From an uncultured Anaerolineales bacterium (GTDB lineage: Bacteria > Chloroflexota > Anaerolineae > B4-G1), in the NCBI GenBank assembly GCA_964597105.1, contig CAZQXX010000002.1, positions 1 through 40,339 of the forward strand: a DNA stretch of 40,339 nt, in the 5' to 3' direction. Position numbers and translations under genes: made by a program. The notes beneath the pieces were generated by a model. It was not told the origin of the DNA and searched no databases. It saw nothing but the letters and a program-made list of their open reading frames with translations. This document shows, one piece after another, positions 9,127 to 40,213 of the stretch (position 1 is its first letter; the number at the start of each line of letters is the position of its first letter).

Positions 9127-10863
9127 CTACCTCTGGATCAGGGCTTTCAGGTCATCCCAGGTTCTGGTGTTGAGCACATCGTCCGGCTCGAGCCACCCCC
9201 GCCGGGCCTGATCAACGCCGAATCGCAAGAACTTCAACTCATCCGTGCGGTGAGCGTCGGTGGAGATGGCGACCTTCAGCCCCCGCTCCTTCGCCATCTT
9301 GCAGTAGACATCGTCCAAGTCGAGACGATCAGGCTGGGCGTTCAGCTCGAGGAAGCATCCACGCTCCAGCGCGGCGTCCATCAAGCGCCCCACATCGACG
9401 TCGTATCCGGGCCGCTTTCCGATCTGACGAGCGGTAGGATGGGCCAAGATGGTGCAGTTAGGGTTGTCCATAGCCCGGATGATCCTCTCAGTCTGCTCGT
9501 CGGCCGGGAGATCGAAGTGGGAGTGGACAGCGCAGATGACCAGATCGAGCTTCTCAAGAACATCATCCGGAAGGTCGAGGGAGCCATCCTCCATGATATC
9601 GACCTCGACGCTTTTCAGGAGGACGATGTCCTCCATGGTCTCGTTCAAGCGCTCGATGTCCTCAATCCGCTTCTCCAACTCCTCCGCGTTCAGGCCCTGG
9701 GTGACGCCGATATAGGCGGAGTGCTCGGTGATGGCGAGGTATTTGTGACCAAGGGCCTGCGCCGCCCGAGCCATCTCCTCCAGGGTCCCCTGTCCGTCGC
9801 TGGCAGTGGTATGTGACTGGAGGTCGCCCTGGATGTCCTCCAGGGTAATGAGATCAGGAAGCCTTCCCTTTCGGGCGGCGTCTATCTCGCCGCGATCCTC
9901 GCGGAGCTCAGGAGGAATCCATGGGAGATCGAAGAGCTGATAGATCCCCGCCTCACTCGCGCCGGCGATCATCTCTGCCTCCTCGGATTCGTCGTCGACG
10001 TCCCACACGCCGTACTCGTTGATCTTCCATCCCTGTTCCAAGGCGATGTTGCGGAGCGTGATGTTGTGCTGCTTAGAACCGGTGAAGTAGAGCAGGGCCG
10101 CCCCGTAGCTCTGCTCCTCCACAACTCGGAGGTCGACCTGAAGGCCGGACCGGAAGACGACGCTCGAGCGGGTCTCGCCCTGGGAGACGATCTCTGCGAC
10201 ATCCTCATACTCGACGAACCTGGAGATCACCTCCTCGCCCGCATCGCTGGTGGTGAGGATATCGAGATCCCCCACGGTCTCCTTCCTGCGGCGGTAGCTG
10301 CCGGCGGCCTCGGCCCTCTCGACAGCCTCGAGATTGCGCAAGAAATCGAGGAGCGGCTCAACCCTTTCCTCGGCCACATCACGCCGCGTGCGCTGCTCTT
10401 CTCCGCTCCAGCGCTCGAGATCCTCCAAGATCTTCTTCTCCGTCTTCGGTCCCAGCCCGTGTAGATCGCGAATCTCGCCCTGTTCAGCGGCCTGCTGCAG
10501 CTCCTCAAGAGTGGTGACACCACACTCCTGGTAGATCGTCTGCACGCGTTTGGGCCCCAAGCCGGCCACGTCCAGCATCACCGACAGGGTCGGCGGGGTA
10601 CGCTGCTCGATCTCCTCCAGCGCCTTCAGGTCCCCGGTCCGGACAATCTCCGTAATCTTGCCGGCGAGGTCCTCACCGATGCCCGGGAGCTCGGTCAGAT
10701 CTTCTCCAGATTCCACCATGTCCGACACGTTCCTGGACATCGTGGAAATGGTGCGGGCGGCATCTCGGTAGGCGCGGACGCGGTACTGGTTGGCCCCCTC
10801 GATCTCCAGAAGGTCGGCCACCTGGTTGAAGATATCGACGACGTCGGAGTTATACACAGGCAT
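9127..10863 (-). CDS. polX: Family X DNA polymerase with a C-terminal PHP domain (bacterial PolX)
   Basis: 578 aa. The N-terminal HhH / 8-kDa-like region reads VADLLEIEGANQYRVRAYRDAARTI. The Pol-beta palm is GSYRRRKETVGDLDILT...QVDLRVV. The PHP motifs are HTTASDG, AITEHS, AVHSHF, ILAHPT and ISTDAH. Confidence 0.93.
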   Translation of the reverse strand: MPVYNSDVVDIFNQVADLLEIEGANQYRVRAYRDAARTISTMSRNVSDMVESGEDLTELPGIGEDLAGKITEIVRTGDLKALEEIEQRTPPTLSVMLDVAGLGPKRVQTIYQECGVTTLEELQQAAEQGEIRDLHGLGPKTEKKILEDLERWSGEEQRTRRDVAEERVEPLLDFLRNLEAVERAEAAGSYRRRKETVGDLDILTTSDAGEEVISRFVEYEDVAEIVSQGETRSSVVFRSGLQVDLRVVEEQSYGAALLYFTGSKQHNITLRNIALEQGWKINEYGVWDVDDESEEAEMIAGASEAGIYQLFDLPWIPPELREDRGEIDAARKGRLPDLITLEDIQGDLQSHTTASDGQGTLEEMARAAQALGHKYLAITEHSAYIGVTQGLNAEELEKRIEDIERLNETMEDIVLLKSVEVDIMEDGSLDLPDDVLEKLDLVICAVHSHFDLPADEQTERIIRAMDNPNCTILAHPTARQIGKRPGYDVDVGRLMDAALERGCFLELNAQPDRLDLDDVYCKMAKERGLKVAISTDAHRTDELKFLRFGVDQARRGWLEPDDVLNTRTWDDLKALIQR

Positions 10864-15200: not shown

Positions 15201-18200
15201 CTGCTGACTGTCCTCCACGTCCGAGACTTCCATGTCCAGGTTACGAAGCTCGACCTCGCTCTGAGCGTGAGCCTGATCGAAGGCACGGTCGAGCGGCGGC
15301 CAGGCTGTGTACCGACGGGCCAGATCGAGAGCCTCCTTCCGCGATTCGGCGACCAGGGTCAAGTAGGCCAGCCGAGCTGTCGTGTGAGGCGCCATCTCGA
15401 GCTCTTGCCCCAACACCATGACAGGATCGAGGGTGGCCCCCGTGGTGCCGGACAGATCCGTTTCGCCCTCGAGCGCAACCGGCGCGCGTGTCGTCCGCCC
15501 GCGACCGACGAAACGAGCACGGTCACCCTCGTGCTGGTGGCTGACCGCCAGGTCCGGCGAAGTCACGAGCACGTGGGCCATGGTGAGAGGTTCCTCATCG
15601 GCCGAGCGAGGCCTGCGAGTGAACAGGAGAGCGTTGAGATCCTCGACATACTCGCTTCCGATGAACAGCTTATTGAAGGCCGGGTGTCGGCGATCCTGGT
15701 TCTGAGAGGCGAGCACGACCTCGCCATAACTAGTAATCCGCAGGCGATGCGACTCATCGCTGTGGTTCGTCACCAGGAGACGTCGAATCTCGACATCGTC
15801 CTCTGGGACCACGACGATCTGGGTGTGAAGTGACACGTCGCCATGGCGTCGCCGAAACTCAACCTGGTGTGGATAGAAGCGCACCTGTTGCTCGTCCGAC
15901 GGAACCTGCGTCGGTTGCTCCGACGCTGACCACCGAGCACCGCTATCCAGATCCTGCAGGTAGAGCCAGGTCCCCCAGCAATCGAGGGTGGTATCCGCAC
16001 GCCAGCGCGTCAGAGCCGTCATCTCGCCGTCACCGCGACGCCCCCCTGCATAGGCGCTGTATCCGCCACCGGCGGCGGTGATGAGCAGGCCGTAGCGGCC
16101 ATTGGAAAGGAAGTGGACCTGGGGGAGTGCAGCGCGCGGCGAGACCTTCCACGGTTCCAGCTCCACCCGCTCTCTCTCCGGCCTCTCAAGGCCGACGCCC
16201 TCCTCGGGCACAGTCTCGAGTTGCGCCTCGCCTGGCACCTGTTCTTGAAGCAGAAACTCGACGCTCTGCACTCGTGGATCCTCGTGAACTCGCCCCACGA
16301 TGGTCTCGTCATCCAGGTAGTTGGCCAGGGCAGCGAAGATCATCCCCTGATGGTGCACCATGTAGGACTTCACGAGAGCCCGTTTCCGCCCCATGGGCAG
16401 CCGAGACGCTGTATAATCAAGCGCCTCGTAGAAACCGTAGTGTCCCAATGCCCCCTCATCAATCAGCCGGTCGACGTTCTCAAGCACGCTCTCCGGCACG
16501 AGTCCGACAGCGAGGAGAGAGGCGTACGGGGCGACCACCAGATCCTCTCCTAACCCCCGCTTGCGCCCCAGACCTGGCACCCCAAATCCCCGATACTGGT
16601 AGTTCATCTGGGTGTCGAAGCGGTAGTAGCCGGACTCGGAGATCCCCCATGGTATCCCCTTCTCCTTGGCGTATGCTATCTGATAGCGCACTGCCGCCCG
16701 ATTCGCGTGGTCGAGCAGCGTCTCCTCGTAGCGGCGTAGCATCAGATCAGGCATCAGATACTCGAACATCGACCCGCCCCAGGACAGAAGCGTGCGCATG
16801 CCCTGCTCCTGACCGACCTGTCGGGCCAGGGGGCGCCCCAGGTGAAGCCAGTGACGCACCGGAACATCTCGCCTGCCGATCGCCACGAGACTGGCGATCC
16901 GCGCCTCCGACGCCAGCAGGTCGTAATGATTCCTATCGAGCTCTTCTGCGTCCACCCGGTACCCGATGTGAAACACGTCGCGCTGGTGATCGTACAGGAA
17001 GCGGAAATCCATATCCTGGACGTATCGTTCGGCCCGCTCGATGTGCTCATCGAGTCCGATCATAAGGCTGTCAGCCGCCATTCCAGCAGCCTCCAGGGAC
17101 TCGTCCAAACTGCGGCACCAGTCGCGCGCCTCCTCAAGCGCCTCAACGAGGCGAGGCTGATCCTCCCTCGCAGTTGCGTCGAGCTCCTTGTCCAGGAGCG
17201 CGATCAGTTCTTCGAGATGGGATCGAGCTGCCCTGCAGATTCCGCTGATCTCGTTCAGACGCGGGCGTCGTGACAGCGTCTCGAGGAGAGCGTGCCATGG
17301 ATCGAACGAGGCAATTCGACTACGGGTCTCCTCGCCTACCGCCTCCGGCTCCTCCCCGGATAGAATTGAGGGAGGCTGATCGAGAGCGGACAACCAGGGG
17401 AGCATCCGCTGTATCTCGAGACGGAGGTCGCGCAGGTGTAGGTGAATCCGATCAGACCAGAGGCGGAGATCGCGGAGGGTTGCCGTGTCCAGAGGCTCCG
17501 TACCTGCCTCGAGTAACGCTTGAAGGCGTTGATTGAAGGGGACGGCCAGATCCTGCTCGAGTTCGTCTAACAGGGGAGTCCAGCGCTCCGGTTCCTCACG
17601 AGCCGCGGCAATCTTGTCGGACAACCCCCTGGCATAGACTCGGAACGCCCTTGCCTCTTCCGCAACCTCGTCACGCTGCTCAACGCGGAGAACGACTTCT
17701 ATCAGGACGCCGATGGTGTCACATAGGCCTCGCCAGCGCTCCCACCGGATCGCGGGTTGACGCTGTACGTCCTCCAGCCCCTGCCTCAGCGCGATCAAGG
17801 ACGCAGCCAGATTGCCGCTGTCCACGGTTGACACGTAACGAGGCATCAGGGTACTCAGGTCCCGCGTATCGTACCAGTTGAGGAAGTGCCCCCGGTACCG
17901 CTCAAGCTCGTCCATACCGTCAAAGGCATCGCCCACGCGGAGAGCAAGCCCCATCACGCCGATGTAGCCCATGTCGAGGGCAGCCAGTGTAGAGACCAGC
18001 ATGAGGCCGATGTTTGTGGGGGACGTGCGACGTGCTACCACGCCTCTGGGCTCCTCCTGGAAGTGATCGGGGGGCAGCCAGTGATCATCGGGGCCGACGA
18101 ACTGCTCGAAATAGAGCCAGGTGCGACGAGCCAGACGACGCAATCGTCTCCGCTGCCGGCTCGAGAGCTTCTGCTCATCTTTCTCCACAGGCTTGCTGGT

Positions 18201-24375: not shown

Positions 24376-25245
24376 TCATTCACTTCTCTCATAGTAGTCC
24401 CGACACTCGGCCTCCCGGCCCCTGACGACGCGCTTCCCCTCCAGCGGCCCGCGGCCCTCCGTGACGATCGTAGCCTGATCCTCCTCGCCGTCCCGCTCGT
24501 AGTAGATCACGACCCAGTCGTGGGTCTTGTCGAGCTCGTGGGCCCGCTTCGTGTTGGAGTAGAGGGCGGTGAAGGTCCAATTGTCGCGCTGTGTGTTAAG
24601 AATCGGGAGCCACGCCTCTCCTGCGGGATTGAAGCGCTTGGGTGCAATCTTACGGAGCCCTCCGGCCTCTGCCTTGCGCCGGTATTCCTGGTCGACGTCG
24701 AGAAGCGTCCCGACATCGAGCTGCTCCTCCGGTCCCGTATCGCTGCAGCGCCGGCGTCGGCGAGCTGCCGTACTGAGCATTCCGGCCAGACTGACCCGGA
24801 CGTTGCGGACTCTCTCGGGCCCGAAACCCTCCACCTCATCAAGGCGGCCATCGTGAGCTGCCTGCTCCAACTCCTCGAGGGTTGAGACAGCGAGCTCACG
24901 GGCTATCCGCTCCGCCAGCTCCTCGCCGATGCCCGGAACCTGTGTGAACAGATCTGCCGGGGAGACCTCGCCTTTCAGCCGCTCCAGGACATCTGAGCGT
25001 CCGGTGCGCACATAGGTCGCAATGACCCTGGAGATCCCCTCACCGATGTTGGGAAGCTCCTGTAGTGCCTGTCGGCCCCTCTCAGTCACCAGCGCGCTGA
25101 TCGATTCCCGCACGGTGCGCACGGTGAGCGCTGCATCCCGGTAGGCCTGAATCTTGAACCGATTCGCTCCCTGCGTCTCCAGGAGATCGGCGATTTGGTC
25201 GAGGACGTCCCCAATCTGATCGTTTGTTGGCTCTCCGTCCGGCAT
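24376..25245 (-). CDS. Helix-hairpin-helix DNA-binding protein that resembles only the N-terminal part of PolX, plus an uncharacterised C-terminal domain
   Basis: GDVLDQIADLLETQGANRFKIQAYRDAALTVRT parallels the PolX N-terminus in this same window. More HhH-like segments follow. The C-terminus reads KIAPKRFNPAGEAWLPILNTQRDNWTFTALYSNTKRAHELDKTHDWVVIYYE. There is no DxD palm and no PHP domain. I chose ATG 25245 because GGAGGA lies 7 nt upstream; the track start is GTG 25269. Confidence 0.7.
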   Translation of the reverse strand: MPDGEPTNDQIGDVLDQIADLLETQGANRFKIQAYRDAALTVRTVRESISALVTERGRQALQELPNIGEGISRVIATYVRTGRSDVLERLKGEVSPADLFTQVPGIGEELAERIARELAVSTLEELEQAAHDGRLDEVEGFGPERVRNVRVSLAGMLSTAARRRRRCSDTGPEEQLDVGTLLDVDQEYRRKAEAGGLRKIAPKRFNPAGEAWLPILNTQRDNWTFTALYSNTKRAHELDKTHDWVVIYYERDGEEDQATIVTEGRGPLEGKRVVRGREAECRDYYERSE

Positions 25246-25280
25246 ATGGCTATCCTCCGAATCAGTCACCAGCCGCCTAC

Positions 25281-26914: not shown

Positions 26915-27379
26915 TCACGGTCGCCCGTAACGGCCCGTGAGTCCGGCGCGGGCGAGAGCGTGCTCCTCCACCTCGCTCAGCAGCTGGTTGCGACTCGCCC
27001 CCGGGGGTAGACCAAGGGGTTGATCGAGGGCGTAAAGCCGGAAGACGTACTGGTGCGTCTCTCCCATCGGGGGGCAGGGCCCACCGTAGCCGACGTTGCC
27101 GAAGTCGTTCCGTCCCTGGGCGCCGCCCCACGGCAGCATGGGGTCCGCCGGCACACCCTCGGGGAGCTCATCCCTGTCGCGCGGGATAGTGTAGAGAACC
27201 CAGTGGGTGAACGTACCACCAGGTGCATTGGGATCCTCACATACGAGAGCGAACTCCTGCGTCGCGTCCGGCGCGTGGCTCCAGCTGAGAGGCGGGGAAA
27301 CGTCCGCACCCTCACACGTATACCGATCGGGAATCGTATCCTCGGAAGAAAAAGCCGAGCTCGTCAGTAGAAAAGGCAT
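26915..27379 (-). CDS. YbhB/YbcL-family PEBP (Raf kinase inhibitor-like) protein, copy 1
   Basis: MPFLLTSSAFSSEDTIPDRYTCEGADVSPPLSWSHAP...ALVCEDPNAPGGTFTHWVLYTIP...GYGGPCPP.GETHQYVFRLYAL. GGAGG lies 5 nt upstream of ATG 27379. Confidence 0.9.
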   Translation of the reverse strand: MPFLLTSSAFSSEDTIPDRYTCEGADVSPPLSWSHAPDATQEFALVCEDPNAPGGTFTHWVLYTIPRDRDELPEGVPADPMLPWGGAQGRNDFGNVGYGGPCPPMGETHQYVFRLYALDQPLGLPPGASRNQLLSEVEEHALARAGLTGRYGRP

Positions 27380-27481
27380 AACCTCCTCCATCCGCTGTGA
27401 AGCACAAAGTCACTCACAGGTGCTTCAAACCTATGCTTCCATCACCGTTTCTTCGAACAGCAACCTGCCCGTCGACACCAG

Positions 27482-27955
27482 CTAGCGATCGGCCAGGAGC
27501 GAGTAGCGGCCCATCAACTCCGCCTGCTCAAGAACGTGTCCCTCCATCGCGCTCAGGACATCCGCCCTCGTGGCTTCCGGGTCCAGCCCGAGTTCGGCAT
27601 CGAGTGCGTACAGACGAACCACGTAGCGATGCACGTTTCCGTCAGACGGACAGGGTCCGCCGTAGCCGATATTGTCGAAGTCGTTGCGCCCCTGCAGGCC
27701 ACCCGCGGGCAACGATCTCGCCGGGGGGACCCCCTCCATCAACGCGTTGACGTCCGGGGGAAGGCCGTAGACGACCCAATGAGACCACACCCCTTTGACA
27801 GAGTCGATGTCCTCGAAGATCAGCGCAAGGCTCTTTGCATCGTCGCGCACTCCGATCCACGTCAACGGGGGCGACGTGTCGTCACCATCACACGTGTACT
27901 GCGGGGGAATCATCTCTCCATCTTGAAAGGCAGTGCTCCTCAACTCAAGTGCCAC
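27482..27955 (-). CDS. YbhB/YbcL-family PEBP protein, copy 2, a tandem paralog
   Basis: LRSTAFQDGEMIPPQYTCDGDDTSPPLTW...LIFEDIDS..GVWSHWVVYGLP...GYGGPCPSDGNVHRYVVRLYAL. GTG start with AGGAGGG upstream. Confidence 0.9.
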   Translation of the reverse strand: MALELRSTAFQDGEMIPPQYTCDGDDTSPPLTWIGVRDDAKSLALIFEDIDSVKGVWSHWVVYGLPPDVNALMEGVPPARSLPAGGLQGRNDFDNIGYGGPCPSDGNVHRYVVRLYALDAELGLDPEATRADVLSAMEGHVLEQAELMGRYSLLADR

Positions 27956-30908: not shown

Positions 30909-31595
30909 CTACTCTTCTGGCGGCGGCTCCGCCCGTTGCAGCGGCGGCGTTTCCGCCTGACCGGCGTAGACCGTGTCGACGGCGTGACCGATCCGCCGCT
31001 CGCCGTCATACAGGTAGGCGTGAACGACGTACTCGCCCTCCTGTTCAGGCGTGATTTCGATTGTGTAGCTCCCTTCATCTCCTTCAGACACCTGCAGATT
31101 TTCCAGCGTAGCGAGCTGGTCGAACTCCCCCCTCGGCTGCTGAGCCCAGAACTCGAGCCGCAGGTCGCCCCCCGGCTTCAGGCCGCGGACGATGGCCTCG
31201 CATCGCAGTTGCTCACCCGGCGACGGGTACGGCGCCGTCAGGGCGAAGAGGCTCACGAGCTCCGCAGCTGCCTCGCCAACCGTGATGCGGATCCCGGGAG
31301 ATTCCCACTCAAAGCGCTCGTCGTCCCTCCATCCTTCGACCGAGGCGTACACGCGTCCGGTCAGATCCGCGGATACCCGATAGGGGATCTCTTTTTCCTC
31401 GCCAGGCGGCAGTGCCTCGACGTAGTTCCCGTCGCCAGCAATGGCGATGCTATAGTCGTCCATCGAGCGGAGGCGAACGTCGAGGCCTGTCAGCGGTTCG
31501 TCCCCTACGTTCTTCAGCCTCAGCGTAAGCCAGTGCAGCCCCCGGTCAATTGTGTCGGGAGATACCTCAAACTCGATCGGATATCTTGTTGGCAT
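30909..31595 (-). CDS. Unassigned two-domain paralog family, copy P1 (228 aa), the dispersed copy
   Basis: It aligns without gaps to P3 (38280-38924); I counted 117 identical of 211 positions by hand. Shared motifs are YPIEFEVSP, HWLTL, LTGLDV, FEWESP, AELVSLFAL, GEQLRCEA, LEFWA and AYLYDGERRIG. AGGAGG lies 7 nt upstream of ATG 31595. There is no signal peptide. Confidence 0.8.
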   Translation of the reverse strand: MPTRYPIEFEVSPDTIDRGLHWLTLRLKNVGDEPLTGLDVRLRSMDDYSIAIAGDGNYVEALPPGEEKEIPYRVSADLTGRVYASVEGWRDDERFEWESPGIRITVGEAAAELVSLFALTAPYPSPGEQLRCEAIVRGLKPGGDLRLEFWAQQPRGEFDQLATLENLQVSEGDEGSYTIEITPEQEGEYVVHAYLYDGERRIGHAVDTVYAGQAETPPLQRAEPPPEE

Positions 31596-32698: not shown

Positions 32699-33592
32699 CT
32701 ATCGGATCAGAAGAACGGGAACTCGCGTCTCGTCCAGGAAGTCAAGCAGCGCCTCGTCCTCAAGCGTCTCCGCCTCCGCAGGCAATATCAGCGTACCCCC
32801 CTCCTCGTGCGCCACAAGATAGGCGAGCCGCGAGACACTCGTCTCGCTCAACGTCTGGAAGGTGGGCTCCAGAAGCGTGCCCACAAGCTGGTCCCGGACA
32901 GCCTCCTGCTGCTGGGATGCTTCCGCAGGATCGTCCGCGAGCAGGAAGATCACTAACCCGCCATCCCCTGGCTTCGCGAGATCTGCAGCGACAGCAATCG
33001 CCTTGTCTGCACGCGATGTGCCGTCGTAGACCACGCGAAAGGGTGGTTCTATCTGAGTTCCCTCGCGGAGAACCAGCGTGGACGCCGGGGCCTGGCTCAA
33101 CACCTCTCGAACCACAGGAGCCAGGCGCTCCGTGTGGAACGCCGACCAGGCTCCTTTGCCCATGATGACGACGTCGGCCTCGGCGGCAGCCGTCAACAGC
33201 TCGGGCGCGACCCTGCCACGAACCACGCGGAACGTACAGCGAGTGCCCAGATTTCGGGTGCGCCCAGTGAACCGCCGCCGGACTCGGCCAGCCTGTACCC
33301 TGAGCTGGCGTGAGAGCTCCTGCGTCTCCACCTGACGGCAGCTGGCGGTGAAGAAACCAACCTCCTGAACGAAGGGCAGCTCGGTCAAGCGCCGCACATT
33401 GACGTCCTCGACGAAAAGGCCCAGGAGCTCGGCATCGAGCCGAGCAGCCATCCGAGCCCCGGCCTCCAACGCCGCCCGGCTGTGTTGCGAAGGATCGAGC
33501 GCAACCAGAATTCGGCGTATCCCATGCTCCCGCCCCGGTTCCTCCATGTCGTTACCATCCATGCTCCGGTCGGTCAGGTCTTCATCGCTCAT
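32699..33592 (-). CDS. Universal stress protein family (one clear USP domain plus a degenerate second), translationally coupled to the Lon-like protease
   Basis: RILVALDPSQHSRAALEAGARMAARLDAELLGLFVED...ADVVIMGKGAW. ATG 33592 overlaps the upstream TGA (33589-33591), giving ATGA. Confidence 0.8.
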   Translation of the reverse strand: MSDEDLTDRSMDGNDMEEPGREHGIRRILVALDPSQHSRAALEAGARMAARLDAELLGLFVEDVNVRRLTELPFVQEVGFFTASCRQVETQELSRQLRVQAGRVRRRFTGRTRNLGTRCTFRVVRGRVAPELLTAAAEADVVIMGKGAWSAFHTERLAPVVREVLSQAPASTLVLREGTQIEPPFRVVYDGTSRADKAIAVAADLAKPGDGGLVIFLLADDPAEASQQQEAVRDQLVGTLLEPTFQTLSETSVSRLAYLVAHEEGGTLILPAEAETLEDEALLDFLDETRVPVLLIR

Positions 33593-36054
33593 GAGTCCTC
33601 CTCCTCCTGAGCGCTCTTGCCGAACTCAGACCGCTTCTGGGCCAGCTCGGCCAACCGCTGCGCCACCTTGTAGTTGATGGTCCCTTCCGGATGCTCCCCC
33701 TCTGGACCGGGCTCGCCAGCCGGCACGCCGGTGAGGAGCTCGATCCCTTCGTCTATCGTCTCAACGGGGTAGATGTGGAAGTTCCCCTCCTCAACCGCGT
33801 CGACGACGTCGTGACGCAGCATCAGGTTCTTGACATTGCTCTGGGGAATAATGACACCCTGGTCGCCGGTCAGACCGCGCTCCTTGCAGATATCGAAGAA
33901 GCCTTCGATCTTCTGATTGACACCACCGATGGCCTGAACCTGCCCGCGCTGGTTAACCGATCCGGTGACGGCCATCGACTGCTTGATCGGGACCTCAGCC
34001 AGCGACGATAGCAGGGCGTAGAGCTCGGCCGACGAGGCGCTGTCGCCGTCGACCTGACCATAGGACTGCTCGAAGACGAGGCTCGCGGAGAGGGACAGGG
34101 GCGTCTCCTCCGCGTAGCGCGAACCGAGGAATCCGGCGAGGATCAGCACTCCCTTGGAGTGAATCGGCCCACCGAGCTCAACCTCTCGCTCGATGTCGAC
34201 GACCTCGCCCTTCCCCACACGGGTTCGAGCCGTAATCCGCGTCGGACGACCGAACATGAAGCCGCCGAGAGGGATGATCGACAGACCGTTGATCTGTCCG
34301 ATCTCGTCGCCCTCGGTGTCGATGAGGACCGTATCCCGGAGGATGGCCTCCTGCATCCGCTCGCGCAACCGGCCGGCTCGATAGACCTGGGCATCAATCG
34401 CTCGCTGAACGTCATCCGCAGTAACGACGCCATTCCCATTCTCCCTGGCCCAATGGTTGGCCTCGCGGAGAAGATCCTCCACTATCTCTCCCTTGGTCGA
34501 CAGTTTCTCCGAGTCGCTCACCATCCGAGCACTATGCTCGATCACCCGAGCCACAGCACCCCGATCGAAGGGCTGGAGTTCCGCTTCGTGGATCATGGTA
34601 CCGATGAACCTGGCGTACAGCTGCTGGTTCTCATCGTCGCGCTCCATCTGTTCGTGGAAATCCGCTTGAACTTTGAACAGATCGGCGAATTCAGGATCGT
34701 ACTGGGTCAAGAGGTAGTAGATCAGACGGTTACCGAAAAGACCGATCTTGATGTCCAACGGTATCGGCTCCGGTTCAAGGGAGACGGTGCTGATCAGGCT
34801 CAGCTGCTGAGCCAGCGACTCGAGCCTGAGCTTACCGGAGTCCAGGGCGCGTTTGAGCGCCTCGTACGCGTATGGTTCCGTCAGCACCTTCCGTGCGTCA
34901 AGCAGCAGATACCCACCGTTGGCCCTGTGCAGGGCGCCGGACTTGATCAGATGGAAGTCAGTCGTCAGCGCACCCATGCGCGCCATATGCTCGATCCGTC
35001 CGATCAGATTCTGATACGTGGGGTTGTCCTCGTAGATCACGGGGGCATGGTCGGTCTCGCTGTTGTCGACGATCACGTTCACTTTGTACCGGCGCATCAG
35101 CGCTTGCTGGACCAAGGCCTGACGGCCCCCCTGCCCCTGCTCTCCCTGCATCATCTGCTGCAACGCTTGCTGGACACCCTGCTGCTGACCACCACTCTGC
35201 TGGGGCAGGAAATTCTCTGCGTTCTCGACGACGTCATCCTGGACAGCATCGAGGTGGTCTACGATCTTCGGATAATTCGAGTACTTCTCACGCAGTTCGT
35301 CGATCAGGCCCCCGATGGCCAGGTTCGCGATCTCTTTATTGAGTTCGTTCAATCGGTCCCGCATCTCCCGCTGCCAGCTGGGCACCTGGCGGAGGATCTC
35401 CTGGAGTTCTCCCTGCATCTCCTCAACCTTCCGCTGCAGCTTTTCCTGCTCCTCTCCAGACAGCTCTTGGATCTCGTCGGGAGAGAGCACCTCCCCGTCG
35501 CGCACCGGGGCCACAGCTAGGCCGGCGGGCGTGCGAATGAGCCGCACATCCTCCTGTCGCGCGCGCTGCTGCAGCTCCTCAAATGCCTCCTGCTGTTTCT
35601 CCCGGAACTCCTCCACGACGGACTGACGCCGGGACTGGTATTCCTCGCTCTCGAAGGCTGCTGACAAAGCGGCGTCGAATTGCTCCACGAGCTCGTCCAT
35701 GTCGTCACCGAACTCGACGCCCGTACCGGCAGGCAACTGAATAGCCTTGGGCTTATTGTCGTCCTCGAAGTTCTTCACGTAGCACCAGTCGGATGGCGCA
35801 GGTTCATTCTCTGCCCGCTCCTCAAAGAACCGACGCATAAGGGACTGCTTACCGATCCCCGGGGGGCCCATGGCGTAGATGTTGAATCCCCTATCATCGA
35901 TCCCCATGCCAAATCGCATGGCCTCCACCGCCCGAGGCTGGCCGATGACCTCCCTCAGGTCTTCTACCTCATCCGTGGTTTCAAACCGGAACTGCTCCGG
36001 GTCGACGTACCGATACAGCTTCGTCGAGTCTAGGCGTTTCGATTGGTCAGTCAT
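33589..36054 (-). CDS. LonC-type Lon-like protease: an AAA-like module split by a long coiled-coil insertion, plus an S16 Ser-Lys protease domain
   Basis: P-loop GPPGIGKQ. A Q/E-rich helical insertion of about 330 aa follows. The Walker-B position reads GGYLLLDARKVL. The protease domain reads QVDGDSASSAELYALLSSL...MAVTGSVNQRGQVQAIGGVNQKIEGFF. I chose ATG 36054 because AAGGAG lies 8 nt upstream. The track ORF extends to 36141. Confidence 0.88.
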   Translation of the reverse strand: MTDQSKRLDSTKLYRYVDPEQFRFETTDEVEDLREVIGQPRAVEAMRFGMGIDDRGFNIYAMGPPGIGKQSLMRRFFEERAENEPAPSDWCYVKNFEDDNKPKAIQLPAGTGVEFGDDMDELVEQFDAALSAAFESEEYQSRRQSVVEEFREKQQEAFEELQQRARQEDVRLIRTPAGLAVAPVRDGEVLSPDEIQELSGEEQEKLQRKVEEMQGELQEILRQVPSWQREMRDRLNELNKEIANLAIGGLIDELREKYSNYPKIVDHLDAVQDDVVENAENFLPQQSGGQQQGVQQALQQMMQGEQGQGGRQALVQQALMRRYKVNVIVDNSETDHAPVIYEDNPTYQNLIGRIEHMARMGALTTDFHLIKSGALHRANGGYLLLDARKVLTEPYAYEALKRALDSGKLRLESLAQQLSLISTVSLEPEPIPLDIKIGLFGNRLIYYLLTQYDPEFADLFKVQADFHEQMERDDENQQLYARFIGTMIHEAELQPFDRGAVARVIEHSARMVSDSEKLSTKGEIVEDLLREANHWARENGNGVVTADDVQRAIDAQVYRAGRLRERMQEAILRDTVLIDTEGDEIGQINGLSIIPLGGFMFGRPTRITARTRVGKGEVVDIEREVELGGPIHSKGVLILAGFLGSRYAEETPLSLSASLVFEQSYGQVDGDSASSAELYALLSSLAEVPIKQSMAVTGSVNQRGQVQAIGGVNQKIEGFFDICKERGLTGDQGVIIPQSNVKNLMLRHDVVDAVEEGNFHIYPVETIDEGIELLTGVPAGEPGPEGEHPEGTINYKVAQRLAELAQKRSEFGKSAQEEEDS

Positions 36055-36090
36055 TGGGTTATCTCCTTGAATTGGCTGCAAAAGCTGCGA

Positions 36091-36120
36091 TATTGATTCT
36101 CGTGTCTCGGTCCAGCGCAA
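36091..36120 (-). promoter_or_regulatory. Promoter-like motif TTGCGCTG-N16-TCAATA upstream of the Lon-like gene
   Basis: The minus strand reads TTGCGCTGGACCGAGACACGAGAATCAATA and ends 36 nt upstream of ATG 36054. The 8-mer, the spacing and the TCAAT box are the same as at 20963-20992. Confidence 0.3.
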
Positions 36121-36176
36121 TCTCGTTGTCCCCCGGCCCAACTGAGGGATGACTGGCTAGGATGCCTGTGCCTGAG

Positions 36177-37100: not shown

Positions 37101-37361
37101 TCAATCTCTCGTGCCGTTTCCGCAGCCGCAAGCCAACCCAGCCCGGGATCTTAGTCCCTGGACTGTGGCCTCGACAATTGAGGCCACGTTCGTTTGGTCC
37201 CGTTGATCCTGAACGCGCCTCGCGGCCCGCCGTATCGCCTTCAACGTCACCGAGCCCTCCGGCAGTGCAAGCACCTGGTCCCCGCCAACCGGAACGATGG
37301 CACGGCTTCGATCACGGGCAACCACGACCACACTTGGCCCCTCTCCCGTCTGCGCCATCAT
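37101..37361 (-). CDS. Doubtful small hypothetical ORF (about 86 aa)
   Basis: MMAQTGEGPSVVVVARDRSRAIVPVGGDQVLALPEGSVTLKAIRRAARRV... GAGGAGG lies 2 nt before the first ATG and 5 nt before the second. Third-position GC looks coding. No family is recognised, and the ORF could be spurious in GC-rich DNA. Confidence 0.3.
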   Translation of the reverse strand: MMAQTGEGPSVVVVARDRSRAIVPVGGDQVLALPEGSVTLKAIRRAARRVQDQRDQTNVASIVEATVQGLRSRAGLACGCGNGTRD

Positions 37362-37533: not shown

Positions 37534-38178
37534 CTACGTTGTGACACTTATGTAGTCGGTCTCGTGACCAATGCGTGTTGTGTCGTCGAATAGATAGGCG
37601 TGGATCACGTAGATCCCCTCTTCCTCCGGTACGAACTCGTCAGACTTATACGTCGCCGTCTCGCCTGGATTGAGCAGGTCGGTCGCGGTCTTGTCTACTG
37701 ATATCGAGTCGCCACTGGGCGTCTCAACCCAGAACTCAAGGATCAGCCCGCTCGACGTCGTGAGGCCGCGGAGCGTGGCCTCAATCGTGACTGGCTCACC
37801 CCGCCTGGGGTGGGGTTCGGGCAAAGCGAAGACACTCACCAACTCTGCAACCTCGGCACCCACCACGATCCGCCGGGGAGGGGATTCCCAGTGGAATGGC
37901 TCGCCAGCCCATCGCCCGTCGAGGGAGATGTAGACACCTCCGGACTGATTCGCCGCCACCTGGTAGTGAACCTCCTCCCCCTCGTCCGGCTCCATCGATG
38001 AGACGAACTTCGACTCCTCGACCACTTCGATCGCGTACGTGTCGAGGCTGTTCAGTCTCACGTTCAATCCGGTCAACGGATCCTGGCTGATATTCCTTAC
38101 GCTGACGGCCAGCCAGGATCTGCCGGCCGATGTGCTCTTGGGGCTTATCTCATACTGTATAGGAAACTTCCCTGCCAT
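37534..38178 (-). CDS. Unassigned two-domain paralog family, copy P2 (214 aa)
   Basis: MAGKFPIQYEISP...SWLAVSVRNISQDPLTGLNV...FHWESP...AELVSVFAL...LEFWV...HAYLFDDTTRIG. GGAGGAGG lies just upstream of ATG 38178. The track ORF extends to 38199. Confidence 0.8.
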   Translation of the reverse strand: MAGKFPIQYEISPKSTSAGRSWLAVSVRNISQDPLTGLNVRLNSLDTYAIEVVEESKFVSSMEPDEGEEVHYQVAANQSGGVYISLDGRWAGEPFHWESPPRRIVVGAEVAELVSVFALPEPHPRRGEPVTIEATLRGLTTSSGLILEFWVETPSGDSISVDKTATDLLNPGETATYKSDEFVPEEEGIYVIHAYLFDDTTRIGHETDYISVTT

Positions 38179-38230
38179 AGGCCTCCTCCAGCCTGTCATT
38201 AACTCGATTGCAGATGGATGGACGATGTAA

Positions 38231-38270
38231 AGATCGCCAGAGCCAGGGCGCGGTCTGGAACTGGCGATCT
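38231..38270 (-). terminator. Hairpin / terminator candidate between P3 and P2
   Basis: A 10-bp perfect outer stem joins agatcgccag (38231-38240) and ctggcgatct (38261-38270). A 4-bp inner stem joins ccag (38243-38246) and ctgg (38255-38258) across a 2x2 internal loop. It starts 9 nt after the P3 stop and is followed by UUUAC. Confidence 0.55.
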
Positions 38271-38279
38271 ATCCGGTTC

Positions 38280-38924
38280 CTAGGCCTCCCGCACGTAGAC
38301 GTACTCGACCTCACGCCCTATGCGGCGAATGCCGTCGTAGAGATAGGCGTATATGGTGTAGAGACCGTCCTCCCCGGGCATGATCTCCGCGGAGTAGGTC
38401 GCCTCCTCTCCCGGCGACAGGGCCTTCGTCTCCACGATGGCCAGCTCCTCGAACTCGCCGCCCGGCGTGTCCGCCCAGAACTCCAGCTTCAGTCCCTCGG
38501 TCTCGCTCAAGCCGCGGATCGTGGCCTCGCAACGCATTTGCTCTCCAATGACGGAATATGGCTCCGTCATAGCGAAGAGGCTGACGAGCTCTGCCACCTC
38601 CGCCCCCACCGTGATCGGGATGCCGGGGGACTCCCAATGGAAGCGCTCGCCGTCCTGCCACCCATCGATGGTGACGTAGAGGCTTCCAGTCCTGTTGGCC
38701 GAGACCTGGAATGGTAGCTCGCGTCTCTCGTCGGGCTTGAGAATGGAGACATAGCTTCCCGTGCCCAGGACACTGATGCTATACGCGTCCAACGAGTTCA
38801 GGTTGACGTCCAGGCCAGTCAGATCCTGAGTGCCAATGTTCTGCAGGCTGAGAGTCAGCCAATGCCTGCCCGTGTCGATGCTCTTTGGAGTTATCTCGTA
38901 TTCAATAGGGTACTTGATAGCCAT
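38280..38924 (-). CDS. Unassigned two-domain paralog family, copy P3 (214 aa)
   Basis: MAIKYPIEYEITPKSIDTGRHWLTLSLQNIGTQDLTGLDV...FHWESPGIPITVGAEVAELVSLFAM...GEQMRCEATIRGL...LEFWA...YAYLYDGIRRIG. AAAGGAGGAAGT precedes ATG 38924. Confidence 0.85.
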   Translation of the reverse strand: MAIKYPIEYEITPKSIDTGRHWLTLSLQNIGTQDLTGLDVNLNSLDAYSISVLGTGSYVSILKPDERRELPFQVSANRTGSLYVTIDGWQDGERFHWESPGIPITVGAEVAELVSLFAMTEPYSVIGEQMRCEATIRGLSETEGLKLEFWADTPGGEFEELAIVETKALSPGEEATYSAEIMPGEDGLYTIYAYLYDGIRRIGREVEYVYVREA

Positions 38925-39017
38925 ACTTCCTCCTTTTCTCTGTGACCGTCACGCATACGTTGACTTCTGCTGCACTGACGTTCATTCCGCGCCCGGCGTA
39001 TTCTCCGATCAACTATT

Positions 39018-39053
39018 GCCCGTCCTGCAGCCGTTACTGAGGCTCTGGAGGGC
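39018..39053 (-). terminator. Imperfect hairpin after P4
   Basis: GCCCUCCAGAGCC...GGCUGCAGGACGGGC forms bulged pairs of 4+3+1+4 bp. It begins 5 nt after the P4 stop. Confidence 0.3.
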
Positions 39054-39058
39054 AAGCT

Positions 39059-39706
39059 TTACTTTTCGTCGACTTGGACGATTTCGATTCGGCGACCGAT
39101 CCTCGTCGTGCCGTCGTACAGAAACGCGTAGATCGTGTATCGTCCTGGCTCCTCCGCCTCGGTCTCCGCGACGTACCGTGCCTGCTCCCCGGGAGACAGC
39201 CGCTTCGTCTCCACAGAGGCCAGTTCCTGGAACGTACCGCTGGGCGTCTCCGCCCAGAACTCGAGGGTGAGCCCCGCGCTTTCAACGCGTCCTCTGAGCG
39301 TGGCCTCGCAGCGGATTACCTCGCCCACTGACGGCTCGGTCTCAGTCAGCGCCAGCAGGCTCACCAACTCCGCGCTCTGCTGCTCCACCGTGAGCGTGAT
39401 GTCCGGGGATTCCCAGTGAAACGGCTCGTCCCCGCGGTCTCCATCCACCGTGATGTAGACGCTCCCCGATAGTCTGGCAGAGATTTGCACAGGGATCACT
39501 TCCCTCGCGTCTGGATCCAGAACCGGGATGAAGGCATCCTCGGTGAGTACATCGACACCGTGGACATCCAGCGACTTCAGCCTCACGTGGAGGCCCCTCA
39601 ACGTGTCCGTGGACACGTCTTCGAGGGTTATCGTCAGCCAGTTGGTCCCCCTGTCGACAGCCTGGGGACTTAGCTCATACCGGAATGGTCCTCTTGTCGC
39701 CATCAT
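39059..39706 (-). CDS. Unassigned two-domain paralog family, copy P4 (215 aa), the most divergent copy
   Basis: MMATRGPFRYELSP...NWLTITLEDVSTDTLRGLHV...FHWESPDITLTV...AELVSLLAL...VIRCEATLRG...LEFWA...YAFLYDGTTRIG. The SD is weak (GAGG, 9 nt upstream). Confidence 0.8.
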   Translation of the reverse strand: MMATRGPFRYELSPQAVDRGTNWLTITLEDVSTDTLRGLHVRLKSLDVHGVDVLTEDAFIPVLDPDAREVIPVQISARLSGSVYITVDGDRGDEPFHWESPDITLTVEQQSAELVSLLALTETEPSVGEVIRCEATLRGRVESAGLTLEFWAETPSGTFQELASVETKRLSPGEQARYVAETEAEEPGRYTIYAFLYDGTTRIGRRIEIVQVDEK

Positions 39707-39769: not shown

Positions 39770-39799
39770 CCGAGGGTGGTACCGCAGGGCCACCCTCGG
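39770..39799 (-). terminator. Hairpin / terminator candidate after the DUF2267 gene
   Basis: A 10-bp perfect stem joins ccgagggtgg (39770-39779) and ccaccctcgg (39790-39799) across a 10-nt loop. It starts 12 nt after the stop. A second hairpin, atgggat-caa-atcccat, lies at 39734-39750. Confidence 0.5.
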
Positions 39800-39811
39800 G
39801 TCCGTCGGGGC

Positions 39812-40213
39812 TCAGACATCTATGCTCATCTTACCTTCGCTCCCGGCCTCAAACAGAGGCTTGTAGTTGTCCGGGAGCTGCGTGCGCACGTCCTCCATCT
39901 CTCCCGTCGTGACCGCCTCGTGAAGGACATCGATCACGGCCCGGGCGTGAAACGTGGCATCCGGCAGATCCACAGTCTCCTTGGCGGCCACTCGAAGGAA
40001 GAATTCATCGACAGCGAAGCTCTCTGTCATATCGACATCTCGCAGGAACTTCCCCAGCTCTGGAGGAAGCTGAGCGGCCAGATCCCCCGCCTCCCCGGGA
40101 TGAATCCGCTCTGCCAGGGTCTCAAGCGTGGCCTGCAACGCTCTCACCGCGTCACCGCGAGATGGCAGCTGCGCTCTGTCCTGAACTTCTCCAACTATCT
40201 CCTCATACTGCAC
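39812..40213 (-). CDS. DUF2267 domain protein
   Basis: 133 aa. EEIVGEVQDRAQLPSRGDAVRALQATLETLAERIHPGEAGDLAAQLPPELGKFL...EFFLRVA...HARAVIDVLHEAVTTGEMEDVRTQLP is the typical two-repeat DUF2267 pattern. AAGGAGG lies 7 nt upstream of GTG 40213. Confidence 0.85.
   Translation of the reverse strand: MQYEEIVGEVQDRAQLPSRGDAVRALQATLETLAERIHPGEAGDLAAQLPPELGKFLRDVDMTESFAVDEFFLRVAAKETVDLPDATFHARAVIDVLHEAVTTGEMEDVRTQLPDNYKPLFEAGSEGKMSIDV

Follow-up and report, generated by a model that had tools for sequence, protein, structure and literature searches.

Two-domain Ig-like proteins encoded in tandem in uncultured Anaerolineae and archaea, with a covarying inverted repeat bracketing the core gene

A stretch of 40,339 nucleotides from an uncultured Anaerolineales bacterium, here called the window, has three consecutive genes, and a fourth at some distance, whose products resemble one another and no named protein family, and the question it raises is what a protein kept in so many copies does. 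The four ORFs recognized in a sequence-only reading are all present, and all are on the minus strand: the distal paralog P1 (30909 to 31595, 228 aa, its C-terminal tail rich in Pro and Glu), P4 (37534 to 38178, 214 aa counted from the ATG at 38178), P3 (38280 to 38924, 214 aa) and the third tandem paralog P2 (39059 to 39706, 215 aa). P3 is referred to as the core, or A-type, paralog and P4 as the B-type. Alignment confirms that the four are co-linear, with 56 invariant columns, and P1 and P3 align without an internal gap at 55% identity, in agreement with an earlier count by hand of 117 of 211 positions. Pairwise identity among the four ranges from 41 to 55%, P3 being 52% identical to P4 and 52% to P2. 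P1 is flanked by a class-I aldolase gene and a gene for an MscS-like membrane protein.

The true start of P4 is most likely the ATG at 38178, and 38199, to which its longest ORF reaches, is an unlikely one, because GGAGGAGG precedes the ATG, the family N-terminus matches there and 214 aa is also the length called independently on identical contigs; the annotation of the start is in need of correction to 38178. Each copy had been credited with its own Shine-Dalgarno site, and this holds well for P3, P4 and P1, the AAGGAGG of P3 at 38929 to 38935 being the strongest of all, but P2 has only a weak GAGG. Measured against orthologs with near-saturated synonymous sites, dN/dS across the four is 0.04 to 0.21 (about 0.04 for P3, the slowest-evolving copy, about 0.07 for P4, 0.10 to 0.13 for P1 and about 0.21 for P2, the fastest), and to judge from these ratios purifying selection acts on all of them. 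Orthologs of P3 in loci L001 to L009 are 84 to 93% identical to it, the second tandem copy in L002 to L009 is 70 to 80% identical to P4, and orthologs of P1 at the same position in L003, L036, L038 and L043 show 76 to 84% identity. The only clear ortholog of P2 among GTDB species-representative genomes (L001 to L077) is in L002, with 62% identity, and the SRA contigs L078 and L083 have a 215-aa gene at the position equivalent to that of P2. P1 to P4 are functional genes of a conserved, unannotated family.

The motifs W-L-T, L-x-G-L-x-V, F-H-W-E-S-P, A-E-L-V-S, E-A-x-x-R-G, L-E-F-W and A-Y-L-Y-D-x-x-x-R-I-G, all picked out earlier, were confirmed in the window copies, and most of the motifs are kept across 95 homologs, bacterial and archaeal; conserved residues of the family include E133, R137, E148 and W150 as well as H96 and E98. 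The claim that there is no N-terminal hydrophobic segment or transmembrane helix holds for 95 of 95 members, archaeal and bacterial (the family median of the maximum 19-aa Kyte-Doolittle window is 1.15), and a leader, lipobox, transmembrane or sorting signal occurs in 0 of these members, which span two domains of life. Nor is there a Cys cluster, each copy having 0 or 1 Cys, and the family is without a catalytic or cofactor motif. The copies are indeed acidic, with pI of 4.4 to 4.5, but acidity is not the family trait that it might seem: the proteome of the whole window is also acidic (median pI 4.8) and among archaeal homologs the median is 5.9, so that it is a trait of the genome.

The suspicion that each protein is made of two beta-sandwiches is borne out by AF2, which models the whole protein with a pLDDT of 91.5, 17 strands and no helix; pLDDT stays high throughout residues 1 to 214, leaving no arm disordered, and domain 1 modelled alone is all beta with a pLDDT of 96.6. 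On these models the family consists of soluble, leaderless proteins of about 214 aa with two Ig-like beta-sandwich domains in each, and between domain 1 and domain 2 within the protein there is no detectable relationship. The N-terminal domain is a divergent one of CARDB type and the C-terminal domain is DUF7490/NEW3-like, where placement near CARDB and DUF7490 signifies, from the profile matches, a weak but consistent similarity at the superfamily level only. As had been supposed, no named family captures P1 to P4: results with Pfam, NCBIfam, PDB sequence profiles, PADLOC and PHROGs were below threshold or empty, with 0 matches to the anti-phage defence profiles of PADLOC and, among the phage profiles of PHROGs, only matches no better than E 0.04, to families whose function is unknown. 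All homologs go by the database name 'hypothetical protein'. There was thus no confident match to a characterised family, and both homologs and synteny, the absence of which would have spoken against the sequence-only reading, exist.

That reading had declared the family unplaceable, which is so for curated families, but placement in a superfamily is possible. CARDB (PF07705) matches 41 of 52 members weakly at E<0.1 (best 7.6e-7), through the domain 1 strand pair h-x-h-x-h-x-N-h-G ... L-x-G-L-x-V-x-L, and in the window it gives 17.0 bits for P3 and 12.3 bits for P1, below the gathering cut-off of 22.7, and no match for P2 or P4. For domain 2 the resemblance is to DUF7490 (PF24318), with weak matches in 20 of 52 members (best 5.4e-6), and to NPCBM_assoc/NEW3 (PF10633), with matches in 7 of 52; the window copies are under every gathering cut-off, DUF7490 giving 15.9 bits for P1 and 12.8 bits for P2 against a cut-off of 27. 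Transglut_C has weak matches in 2 of 52 members. The LEA_2/WHy-type sandwich that had been mooted as a further option had no profile match with any copy at E up to 10, nor with any of 52 members at E up to 0.1. A small heat-shock protein (HSP20) identity was also considered and rejected: HSP20 profiles match no copy at E up to 10 and are absent from the votes of the 52 members, the alpha-crystallin fold is absent from the top 50 Foldseek matches, and the AF2 model has no flexible arms.

For the two-domain arrangement, the Foldseek matches are the C-terminal barrel pair of transglutaminases and RbmA (E about 1e-8), and for domain 1 they are TRAP-beta/delta, alpha-2-macroglobulin MG domains, adaptin/COPI appendages and ApaG, at TM 0.6 to 0.7; as far as the models go, these are generic Ig-like folds only. 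The folds so matched act as binding or structural modules and not as catalytic domains. The barrel pair of transglutaminase and protein 4.2, the best two-domain match (E 8e-9), is an appendage of an enzyme of 650 to 720 aa whereas the family is without a transglutaminase core, and the resemblance is generic since TMq is 0.41 to 0.44 and rmsd about 11 A. CARDB/E-set domains are Ig-like beta-sandwiches of seven to nine strands and domain 1 is like them, both in its AF2 model and in its E-set/Ig-like Foldseek matches (TM 0.6 to 0.7). A CARDB protein is typically of large size, with several domains, and is either secreted or anchored; in contrast the signal peptide, anchor and multi-domain setting of that extracellular context are lacking from the 95 members, which are leaderless and have a fixed two-domain form of about 214 aa. 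CARDB-type domains being typically extracellular (Pfam description), a leaderless protein at work in the cytoplasm would be unusual for this class of fold.

The proteins might accordingly be looked for outside the cell, as a structural component of envelope, sheath or matrix that is exported non-classically, without a Sec/Tat leader, and in which the paralogs co-assemble. Besides the CARDB-like domain 1, the analogy with Vibrio cholerae RbmA (PDB 4KKP, 4BE6) points that way. This secreted biofilm matrix scaffold of tandem FnIII domains, about 225 aa with two beta-sandwiches, is the best tandem-domain structural analogue of like size; it is non-enzymatic and works through oligomerising and binding, and by analogy the same is proposed for the family. 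But for RbmA the TM is only about 0.4 and identity 13 to 15%, with no sequence-level relationship, and it is secreted by way of a signal peptide to work in the extracellular matrix, whereas the family is leaderless. A giant secreted subtilase has nine repeats that weakly match domain 2, and SIMPL, DUF308, MscS-like, rhomboid and cyclic-glucan synthase genes are envelope-related neighbours, yet secretion-system genes are not conserved nearby, the paucity of Cys fits a surface protein poorly, and adaptin/COPI appendages and ApaG, which are cytosolic, fit domain 1 equally well. With a leader or anchor in none of the 95 members, a place at the cell surface is judged quite unlikely.

The family is small: 5.8 billion clusters yield 458 homologs, and 1.84 billion proteins, at 50% identity, yield 284 representatives. 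All homologs are from uncultured MAGs, with hosts confined to uncultured Anaerolineae, Bathyarchaeia, some methanogen MAGs (including Methanotrichaceae) and others. The members are standalone, of about 214 aa, and the two-domain unit is conserved across bacteria and archaea. The local amplification seen in the window proves to be recurrent, with two or three tandem copies in many Anaerolineae and in some Bathyarchaeia loci. In an NJ tree the core clade and the B clade are apart, and at 14 loci a higher-scoring core copy is followed, 0 to 204 nt further along the same strand, by a B copy. An ancient duplication in Anaerolineae would have given the slow core A-type (P3) and the B-type (P4), with P1 and P2 as later accessory variants. 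Because A nearly always stands next to B and precedes it, the two types probably act as A/B hetero-oligomers.

Directly upstream of the P2-P3-P4 triplet is a DUF2267 gene (39812 to 40213, minus strand, profile E 1.2e-35), and the window also has, on the minus strand, a gene for a LonC-type Lon-like protease (33589 to 36141, with AAA_32, LonC_helical and Lon_C) after which, in a conserved block, comes one for a universal stress protein, USP (32699 to 33592). The stress-type neighbourhood first noticed here recurs in related genomes, but the association with LonC, USP and DUF2267 is that of Anaerolineae and there is no conserved partner in archaea, where 33 loci share none and the top family occurs 3 times among 108 neighbours. 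The Anaerolineae neighbours are M50-CBS protease, LonC, HtrA, USP, DUF2267 and PRC-barrel genes. M50-CBS is directly upstream on the same strand at 10 loci (gaps of 12 to 89 nt), PRC-barrel is downstream of the family gene at 7, LonC adjoins it at 4 and is within 10 kb at 12 related loci (13 sources with the window), HtrA adjoins it at 3, and DUF2267, a recurrent neighbour, is upstream at 5 loci at least. Paired thermosome genes adjoin the family gene in L042, L053 and L056 from Bathyarchaeia. Since PolX, LigA and cyclic-glucan synthase genes are also in conserved order in the Anaerolineae neighbourhood, the protease and USP linkage there may be inherited synteny and not functional coupling.

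Three protease classes are immediate same-strand neighbours, at 17 Anaerolineae loci in total, which lends some appeal to a cytoplasmic protease inhibitor or regulator whose Ig-like sandwich restrains the neighbouring M50-CBS, LonC or HtrA, in the way of BsuPI or MG domains. Bacillus subtilis BsuPI is, like the family, a leaderless cytoplasmic Ig-like sandwich, its profile (PF12690) weakly matches the last strands of domain 2 in 14 of 52 members (best 0.0048), and bacterial alpha-2-macroglobulin MG domains are among the best matches of domain 1. However, BsuPI has only one domain, of about 120 aa, whereas the family has two, and every BsuPI score is under the gathering cut-off, those in the window being 13.5 bits for P3 and 13.9 bits for P2 against 22.9 and covering profile positions 62 to 96 only. 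The partner protease varies by locus and none is beside the archaeal homologs, and possible inheritance of the synteny weakens what linkage there is. HtrA is periplasmic and the active site of M50 is intramembrane, so that one cytosolic inhibitor for M50, LonC and HtrA is unlikely, and this reading as a whole very unlikely.

Glycan genes are among the neighbours too, and a pair of cytoplasmic modules that bind glycogen or cyclic beta-glucan through conserved aromatics, like CBM-type beta-sandwiches, was weighed. The aromatics W22, Y83, F95, W97, F149, W150, Y177 and Y192/Y194 are invariant or nearly so, but most conserved aromatics are at alternating strand positions, as expected of sandwich cores. 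Glycogen-synthase-like GT5/GT1 genes are at most three genes away in L041, L051, L069 and L074 from archaea and in L006 and L032 from Anaerolineae, and a giant GH94 cyclic beta-1,2-glucan-synthase-like gene is syntenic in the window, L022, L027, L038 and L045. Such genes are nevertheless near only a minority of loci, L051 and L074 are the same MAG, and there is no conserved glycoside hydrolase or transporter partner. The NEW3/NPCBM_assoc matches could also be claimed for carbohydrate binding, but no CBM family was matched in Pfam, and such a role is most improbable.

A different line of evidence comes from the spacers, in which hairpins had been proposed to separate the copies. Those at 38231 to 38270 (dG -27.5, z -3.4) and, between DUF2267 and P2, at about 39770 to 39800 on the minus strand (CCCGAGGGTGG...CCACCCTCGG; spacer dG -56.3, z -3.5) are significant, but the P2-P3 spacer, in which the one at 39018 to 39053 was placed, is not (z -0.86), and none of the three has the U-tract of a canonical intrinsic terminator. 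The accompanying idea of individually tuned expression acquired an unexpected basis, in that the hairpin downstream of P3 is the remnant of a conserved inverted-repeat bracket, one arm of which is 5′ and the other 3′ of the gene. In the window a degenerate 5′ arm (38987 to 39014, minus strand, AGTTGATCGGAGAATACGCCGGGCGCGG) ends 62 nt before the P3 ATG, and the 3′ arm (38226 to 38253, minus strand, CCGCGCCCTGGCTCTGGCGATCTTTACA), which folds also into the local hairpin at 38231 to 38270, begins 26 nt past the P3 stop. About 16 of 25 pairs are left there, the duplex having a dG of -33.4 as against -19.6 +/- 3.4 for shuffles.

In relatives a covarying 25-bp inverted repeat encloses the P3 orthologs, with one arm in each flank; the arms, of 24 to 28 nt, are 81 to 100% complementary and 736 to 819 nt apart, and the duplex dG is -47 to -57 kcal/mol versus -16 to -26 for shuffles. 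Over the 25 pairs 91.6% of cells are paired (31 to 41% in slid controls), G-U wobble pairs being present among them, and 9 pairs have changed on both sides (0 of 500 shuffles); the bracket is specific to P3-type genes, 996 genes having been tested. The 16S and 23S rRNA precursors in bacteria are flanked by RNase III processing stems (PMC6582327). Like these, the bracket in relatives is a covarying duplex, 20 bp long or more, whose two strands lie on either side of the whole functional RNA that it encloses; unlike them, it encloses a 645-nt protein-coding ORF with its Shine-Dalgarno site, has an arm core whose sequence is itself conserved, and is degenerate in its window copy. From this pairing and covariation, the P3 inverted repeat probably serves either to clamp the mRNA or as a processing stem for RNase III. 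The 25-bp helix between the 5′ and 3′ untranslated flanks of the core transcript would clamp the mRNA or, alternatively, RNase III would excise the core mRNA from a polycistron at the helix, as with rRNA, and the helix would set the level of the core copy apart from that of the flanking paralogs. In the window the clamp would have decayed, with the 3′ arm making the local hairpin instead.

Covariation of the arms can also arise at the DNA level, by gene conversion from one arm to the other or by parallel change of two binding sites for one protein factor, and the repeats could then be the termini of a former mobile cassette, recombinase sites for inversion or a single regulator's paired operators, looping the DNA. 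Both arms retain a nearly invariant core, CCAGGGCGCGG, across genomes in which synonymous sites are saturated, and so they look like targets of sequence-specific recognition and not just of pairing; the cross-domain distribution of the protein family is, moreover, HGT-like. However, the bracketed gene has the same orientation and syntenic position in 12 of 12 loci, and hence shows no sign of inversion or mobility, about 0.9 Mb of related loci contain no other instance of the bracket motif, and no recombinase or transposase gene is near the bracket in the window or related loci. The G-U wobble pairs also count against a DNA-level origin, as do the sigma70-like promoters predicted in L010 and L014, 35 nt ahead of the 5′ arm, since with a promoter-like site preceding it the 5′ arm would be within the transcript. 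A DNA-level origin is thus regarded as rather doubtful.

The best explanation as a whole, to which a probability of roughly 0.4 is given, is that of a cytoplasmic Ig-fold binding module together with a P3 mRNA clamp or processing stem. With low confidence, the protein is further taken to serve a stress/proteostasis island in the cytoplasm as a binding or adaptor module without enzymatic activity, working as A/B hetero-oligomers. A scaffold or adaptor is proposed because the family sits in such an island and some Bathyarchaeia copies adjoin thermosome genes; it would be co-regulated with the DUF2267, M50-CBS site-2 protease, LonC, HtrA, USP and PRC-barrel genes and, without catalysis, bind client proteins or protease and chaperone partners. 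The most specific version, in which a new class of cytoplasmic A/B hetero-oligomeric Ig-fold stress holdase or protease/chaperone adaptor, common to Anaerolineae and Bathyarchaeia/methanogens, is combined with a 25-bp 5′UTR-3′UTR helix that stabilises the core mRNA, excises it in the manner of rRNA and sets stoichiometry, is unlikely in its entirety.

Covarying duplexes that enclose a whole RNA are textbook knowledge for rRNA, but to our knowledge conserved covarying duplexes around a whole ORF have rarely been documented in bacterial mRNAs, and the P3 helix is of interest independently of what the protein does. The family itself is a compact and strongly constrained one of uncultured anaerobic lineages in two domains of life, unannotated in any curated library, and it merits a Pfam/NCBIfam model of its own. 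If it is truly a cytoplasmic proteostasis adaptor, a leaderless Ig-fold module would join a field in which AAA+ and alpha-crystallin proteins prevail, and would provide a handle on the stress physiology of organisms that are not yet cultivable.

The four reading frames on which the sequence-only reading rested are all present on the minus strand, P1 at 30909-31595, P4 at 37534-38199 (longest ORF), P3 at 38280-38924 and P2 at 39059-39706, and their products are indeed co-linear, with 56 invariant columns in a MAFFT alignment. Identity to P3 is 55% for P1 and 52% for each of P4 and P2. The start of P4 is most likely the ATG at 38178, giving 214 aa: it has the SD GGAGGAGG and the family N-terminus MAxK(Y/F)PI, and in public contigs of identical sequence the gene is also called at 214 aa. 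Against their orthologs the Nei-Gojobori dN/dS is ~0.04 for P3, 0.07 for P4, 0.10-0.13 for P1 and 0.21 for P2, ratios that are approximate as dS exceeds 1; to judge from their sequences, P1 to P4 are real genes. The motifs listed earlier are real, and most are kept when 95 bacterial and archaeal homologs are aligned; a hydrophobic N-terminus or transmembrane segment is absent from every one of them, and cysteines number 0-1 per member. The proteins are acidic as described (pI 4.4-4.5), but this is shared by the whole window (median pI 4.8 for 29 genes) and so is no family trait; for archaeal homologs the median is 5.9. An acidic proteome is a feature of salt-adapted organisms, and several of the Anaerolineae sources of the family are soda-lake or hypersaline samples.

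With all four copies there was no match above threshold in Pfam, NCBIfam, PADLOC or PHROGs, and the family profile gave 0 matches at E up to 10 against all PDB sequences. AlphaFold2, from a 52-sequence alignment, predicts for the whole protein 17 strands and no helix (mean pLDDT 91.5), disposed as two sandwiches, residues ~1-107 and 109-214, with domain 1 alone reaching pLDDT 96.6 and pTM 0.86. Internal duplication as the origin of the two domains was rejected, since at an hhalign probability of 0.5% they are not detectably homologous. In a vote over 52 members, domain 1 weakly resembles CARDB (41/52, best 7.6e-7) and domain 2 weakly resembles DUF7490 (20/52, best 5.4e-6), BsuPI (14/52, best 0.005) and NEW3 (7/52). 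Foldseek searches of the PDB matched the tandem arrangement to the transglutaminase C-terminal barrel pair and RbmA (E ~1e-8, TM ~0.4), and domain 1 to TRAP-beta/delta, macroglobulin MG domains, adaptin/COPI appendage domains and ApaG (TM 0.6-0.7); for the whole protein and domain 1 in the PDB, and in BFVD, such matches were generically Ig-like and nothing specific was found. Membership tests failed for both sHSP and LEA_2/WHy identities, and literature searches on DUF7490, and on CARDB with Bathyarchaeota, turned up nothing relevant. The family thus falls in the E-set/CARDB-like fold class, as a leaderless protein of fixed two-domain build that has neither a catalytic nor a cofactor motif and is covered by no curated model. 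For CARDB-like domains this architecture and the absence of a leader are unusual, and the notion that the family is, as most CARDB proteins are, a surface or matrix component, here exported by a non-classical route, draws on the domain 1 resemblance and is considered rather unlikely.

A word-indexed search returned 458 homologs, any name given to them being 'hypothetical protein', and when 1.84 billion cluster representatives were searched exhaustively by HMM, 284 matched (69 below 1e-30), the full-length ones nearly all of 211-225 aa and matching end to end; none led to an annotated family. The sole long match, P0235, was discarded as a family link: it is a subtilase of 3144 aa, secreted and carrying Ig repeats of a generic kind. 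Scanning one genome per GTDB species gave 77 loci (L001-L077), every one from a MAG. The bacterial hosts are Anaerolineales, 'Thermoflexales' and other Anaerolineae, with one Sulfotelmatobacter bin, and the archaeal hosts are Bathyarchaeia of peat and soil, Methanotrichaceae, Methanomicrobiales and Methylarchaceae. Tandem arrays of 2 or 3 copies are common in Anaerolineae and occur also in Bathyarchaeia (L053, L056, L065, L072).

A neighbor-joining tree separates old paralog groups in Anaerolineae. P3 belongs to the slow 'core' or A group, with 84-93% identity to loci L001-L009, and P4 to the B group (70-80%). P1 represents a distal group whose position between aldolase and MscS-like genes is kept in L003, L036, L038 and L043, and P2 a young group whose other member among the GTDB loci is found only in L002 (62% identity), with a 215-aa gene at the P2 position also in the SRA contigs L078 and L083. 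In 14 loci adjacent copies share a strand in the order core then B, an arrangement suggestive of the pattern typical of heteromeric partners. In an Anaerolineales MAG from Salar de Ascotan (L076, 9998-10243), just the first ~45 codons of the family gene lie between M50-CBS and USP genes; the fragment has the look of a gene remnant, a hint that this lineage has lost the family.

All 29 substantial window genes are on the minus strand; GC skew is negative across 1-40339, a 40-kb co-directional block. The annotated genes close to P1-P4 encode DUF2267, a 3-hydroxyisobutyrate-type dehydrogenase, LonC, two USPs, a DeoC/class-I aldolase and an MscS-like membrane protein, and those further off two PEBPs, MgtC/DUF4010, HtrA, ZIP, a giant GH94 cyclic-beta-1,2-glucan-synthase-like protein, PolX, LigA and a rhomboid protein. 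Clustering of neighbors in all 78 loci revealed recurrent associations. In 10 Anaerolineae loci the gene directly upstream, in the same orientation and 12-89 nt away, encodes a CBS-domain-containing M50 site-2 protease; a PRC-barrel/DUF2171 protein is downstream in 7 loci, and DUF2267 is upstream in at least 5. LonC adjoins the family gene in 4 loci and is within 10 kb in 12 related loci, HtrA adjoins it in 3, and SIMPL, DUF308, baeRF and RF-1-domain genes are other nearby neighbors. In L010 and L014 the family gene region is flanked by two LonC-type genes. As the housekeeping genes for PolX and LigA are also syntenic, much of the neighborhood may be inherited gene order. No conserved partner gene was found in the 33 archaeal loci, where the commonest neighbors, with three matches each, are thermosome genes, methyltransferases and PQQ-repeat proteins; a thermosome (Cpn60/TCP-1) gene pair directly adjoins the family gene in Bathyarchaeia L042, L053 and L056.

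What emerges is a conserved tandem Ig-like protein that is leaderless and non-catalytic, has an ancient A/B paralogy and, in Anaerolineae, lies in a recurrent stress/proteostasis neighborhood of the kind the sequence-only reading had pointed to. On the favored explanation, to which a probability of about 0.4 may be given, the family proteins would serve as a cytoplasmic binding, scaffold or adaptor module, the A and B paralogs would act as A/B hetero-oligomers, and the module would work within a stress/proteostasis regulon. Direct inhibition of a protease, in the manner of BsuPI or MG domains, could be imagined from the protease neighbors and from the resemblance of domain 2 to BsuPI and of the domain 1 fold to MG domains, the former weak and the latter generic, and seems distinctly improbable. 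A cytosolic glycan-binding module linked to glycogen or cyclic glucan is a long shot: a glycogen-synthase-like GT is at most three genes away in archaeal L041, L051, L069 and L074 and Anaerolineae L006 and L032, and the giant 2905-aa ORF of the window (12228-20945, minus strand) is a cyclic beta-1,2-glucan-synthase-like protein, syntenic in L022, L027, L038 and L045.

That giant protein combines two GH94 supersandwich stretches with a catalytic domain of GH94 type and one that is glucoamylase-like; it was rejected as a carrier of family-related domains, being GH94/cyclic-glucan-synthase-like and unrelated to the Ig-fold family. Other minus-strand genes of the window include tandem paralogs of a YbhB/YbcL-like phosphatidylethanolamine-binding protein (PEBP; 26915-27391 and 27482-27955), another local duplication in the same island, and a full PolX (9127-10863; HHH_8, HHH_5, thumb and PHP) with, 14 kb apart, a 297-aa protein (24376-25269). 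The 297-aa protein matches only the helix-hairpin-helix domains HHH_8 and HHH_5, both of which PolX also has in its N-terminal part. An ORF of 85-86 aa separating P4 from the dehydrogenase gene (37101-37361, minus strand) is called on the identical public contigs L078-L081; it has no Pfam match and is missing at the equivalent position in L003.

Of the hairpins said to separate the copies, those at 38231-38270 (dG -27.5, z -3.4) and ~39770-39800 (z -3.5) hold up, but that of the P2-P3 spacer is not significant (z -0.86). None of the window's spacer hairpins is a canonical U-tailed terminator, the spacers lack intrinsic terminators on the minus strand, 0 promoter-like sites of canonical type were found around the copies, and an Rfam search of the window and three related loci matched nothing.

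When the upstream regions of P3 orthologs are aligned, the sole conserved block besides the SD is GTCGATCACACGAACCAGGGCGCGG, and its reverse complement is just downstream of P3-type genes and almost nowhere else in a PWM scan of ~0.9 Mb of loci. The core gene is thereby bracketed by a 25-bp inverted repeat with no matching Rfam family. A repeat search in L002, L003, L005, L006, L010 and L014 gave arms of 24-28 nt, 81-100% complementary and 736-819 nt apart around the 645-nt ORF, with full complementarity in L005. Both arms are present in L001, L002, L003, L005, L006, L010, L013, L014, L016 and the metagenome contig L083, with a variant form in L022 and only the 3′ arm found in L008 and L009; the ATG follows the 5′ arm at 30-72 nt, and 21-143 nt separate the stop codon from the 3′ arm. 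A metagenome motif scan found two contigs only; a P3 ortholog and its bracket are complete in the first, and the second breaks off on the gene side. With ten arm pairs aligned, the 25-pair helix is 91.6% paired, nine pairs are altered on both sides and 0 of 500 shuffles equal it; with the partner shifted by 1-3 columns, just 31-41% are paired. In DNA as GC-rich as this, 130-nt flanks were uninformative in RNAduplex, and core arms were therefore analyzed, giving a duplex dG of -47 to -57 kcal/mol versus -16 to -26 for shuffles. In a ranking of 996 genes by flank complementarity the top is dominated by P3-type genes, and the scores of the weaker P3-type brackets are also reached by five ORFs from outside the family, most of them short and probably spurious. 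The bracket of the window is degenerate: of the arms at 38987-39014 (5′) and 38226-38253 (3′), both on the minus strand, ~16/25 pairs are left (duplex dG -33.4 versus -19.6 +/- 3.4 for shuffles), and the 3′ arm has gained a pairing partner close by, forming the hairpin at 38231-38270.

A genome-wide repeat or MITE was rejected as the identity of the bracket, nearly all 26 PWM matches, and all strong ones (score >25), flanking P3-type genes. Less probably than an RNA element it is a feature of the DNA, such as former cassette ends, paired operators or arms subject to gene conversion with each other, even if constant orientation and position in all loci speak against inversion or mobility. L010 and L014 have an 11/12 sigma70-like promoter, TTGACT-16-TATAAT, 35 nt upstream of the 5′ arm, which therefore lies in the leader. 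On the favored reading the bracket would act at the mRNA level, as a clamp or as an RNase III processing stem, either of which would set expression of the core paralog apart from that of neighboring genes. The 16S and 23S rRNAs are flanked by processing stems (PMC6582327), to which the P3 bracket would be analogous.

The fold class is known and the family, all of whose members are from uncultured lineages, is undescribed, having neither a curated model nor a named homolog. By itself the protein is a routine 'hypothetical Ig-fold family'; it is the covarying, ORF-enclosing helix around the core paralog, unusual and directly testable, that gives it added weight.
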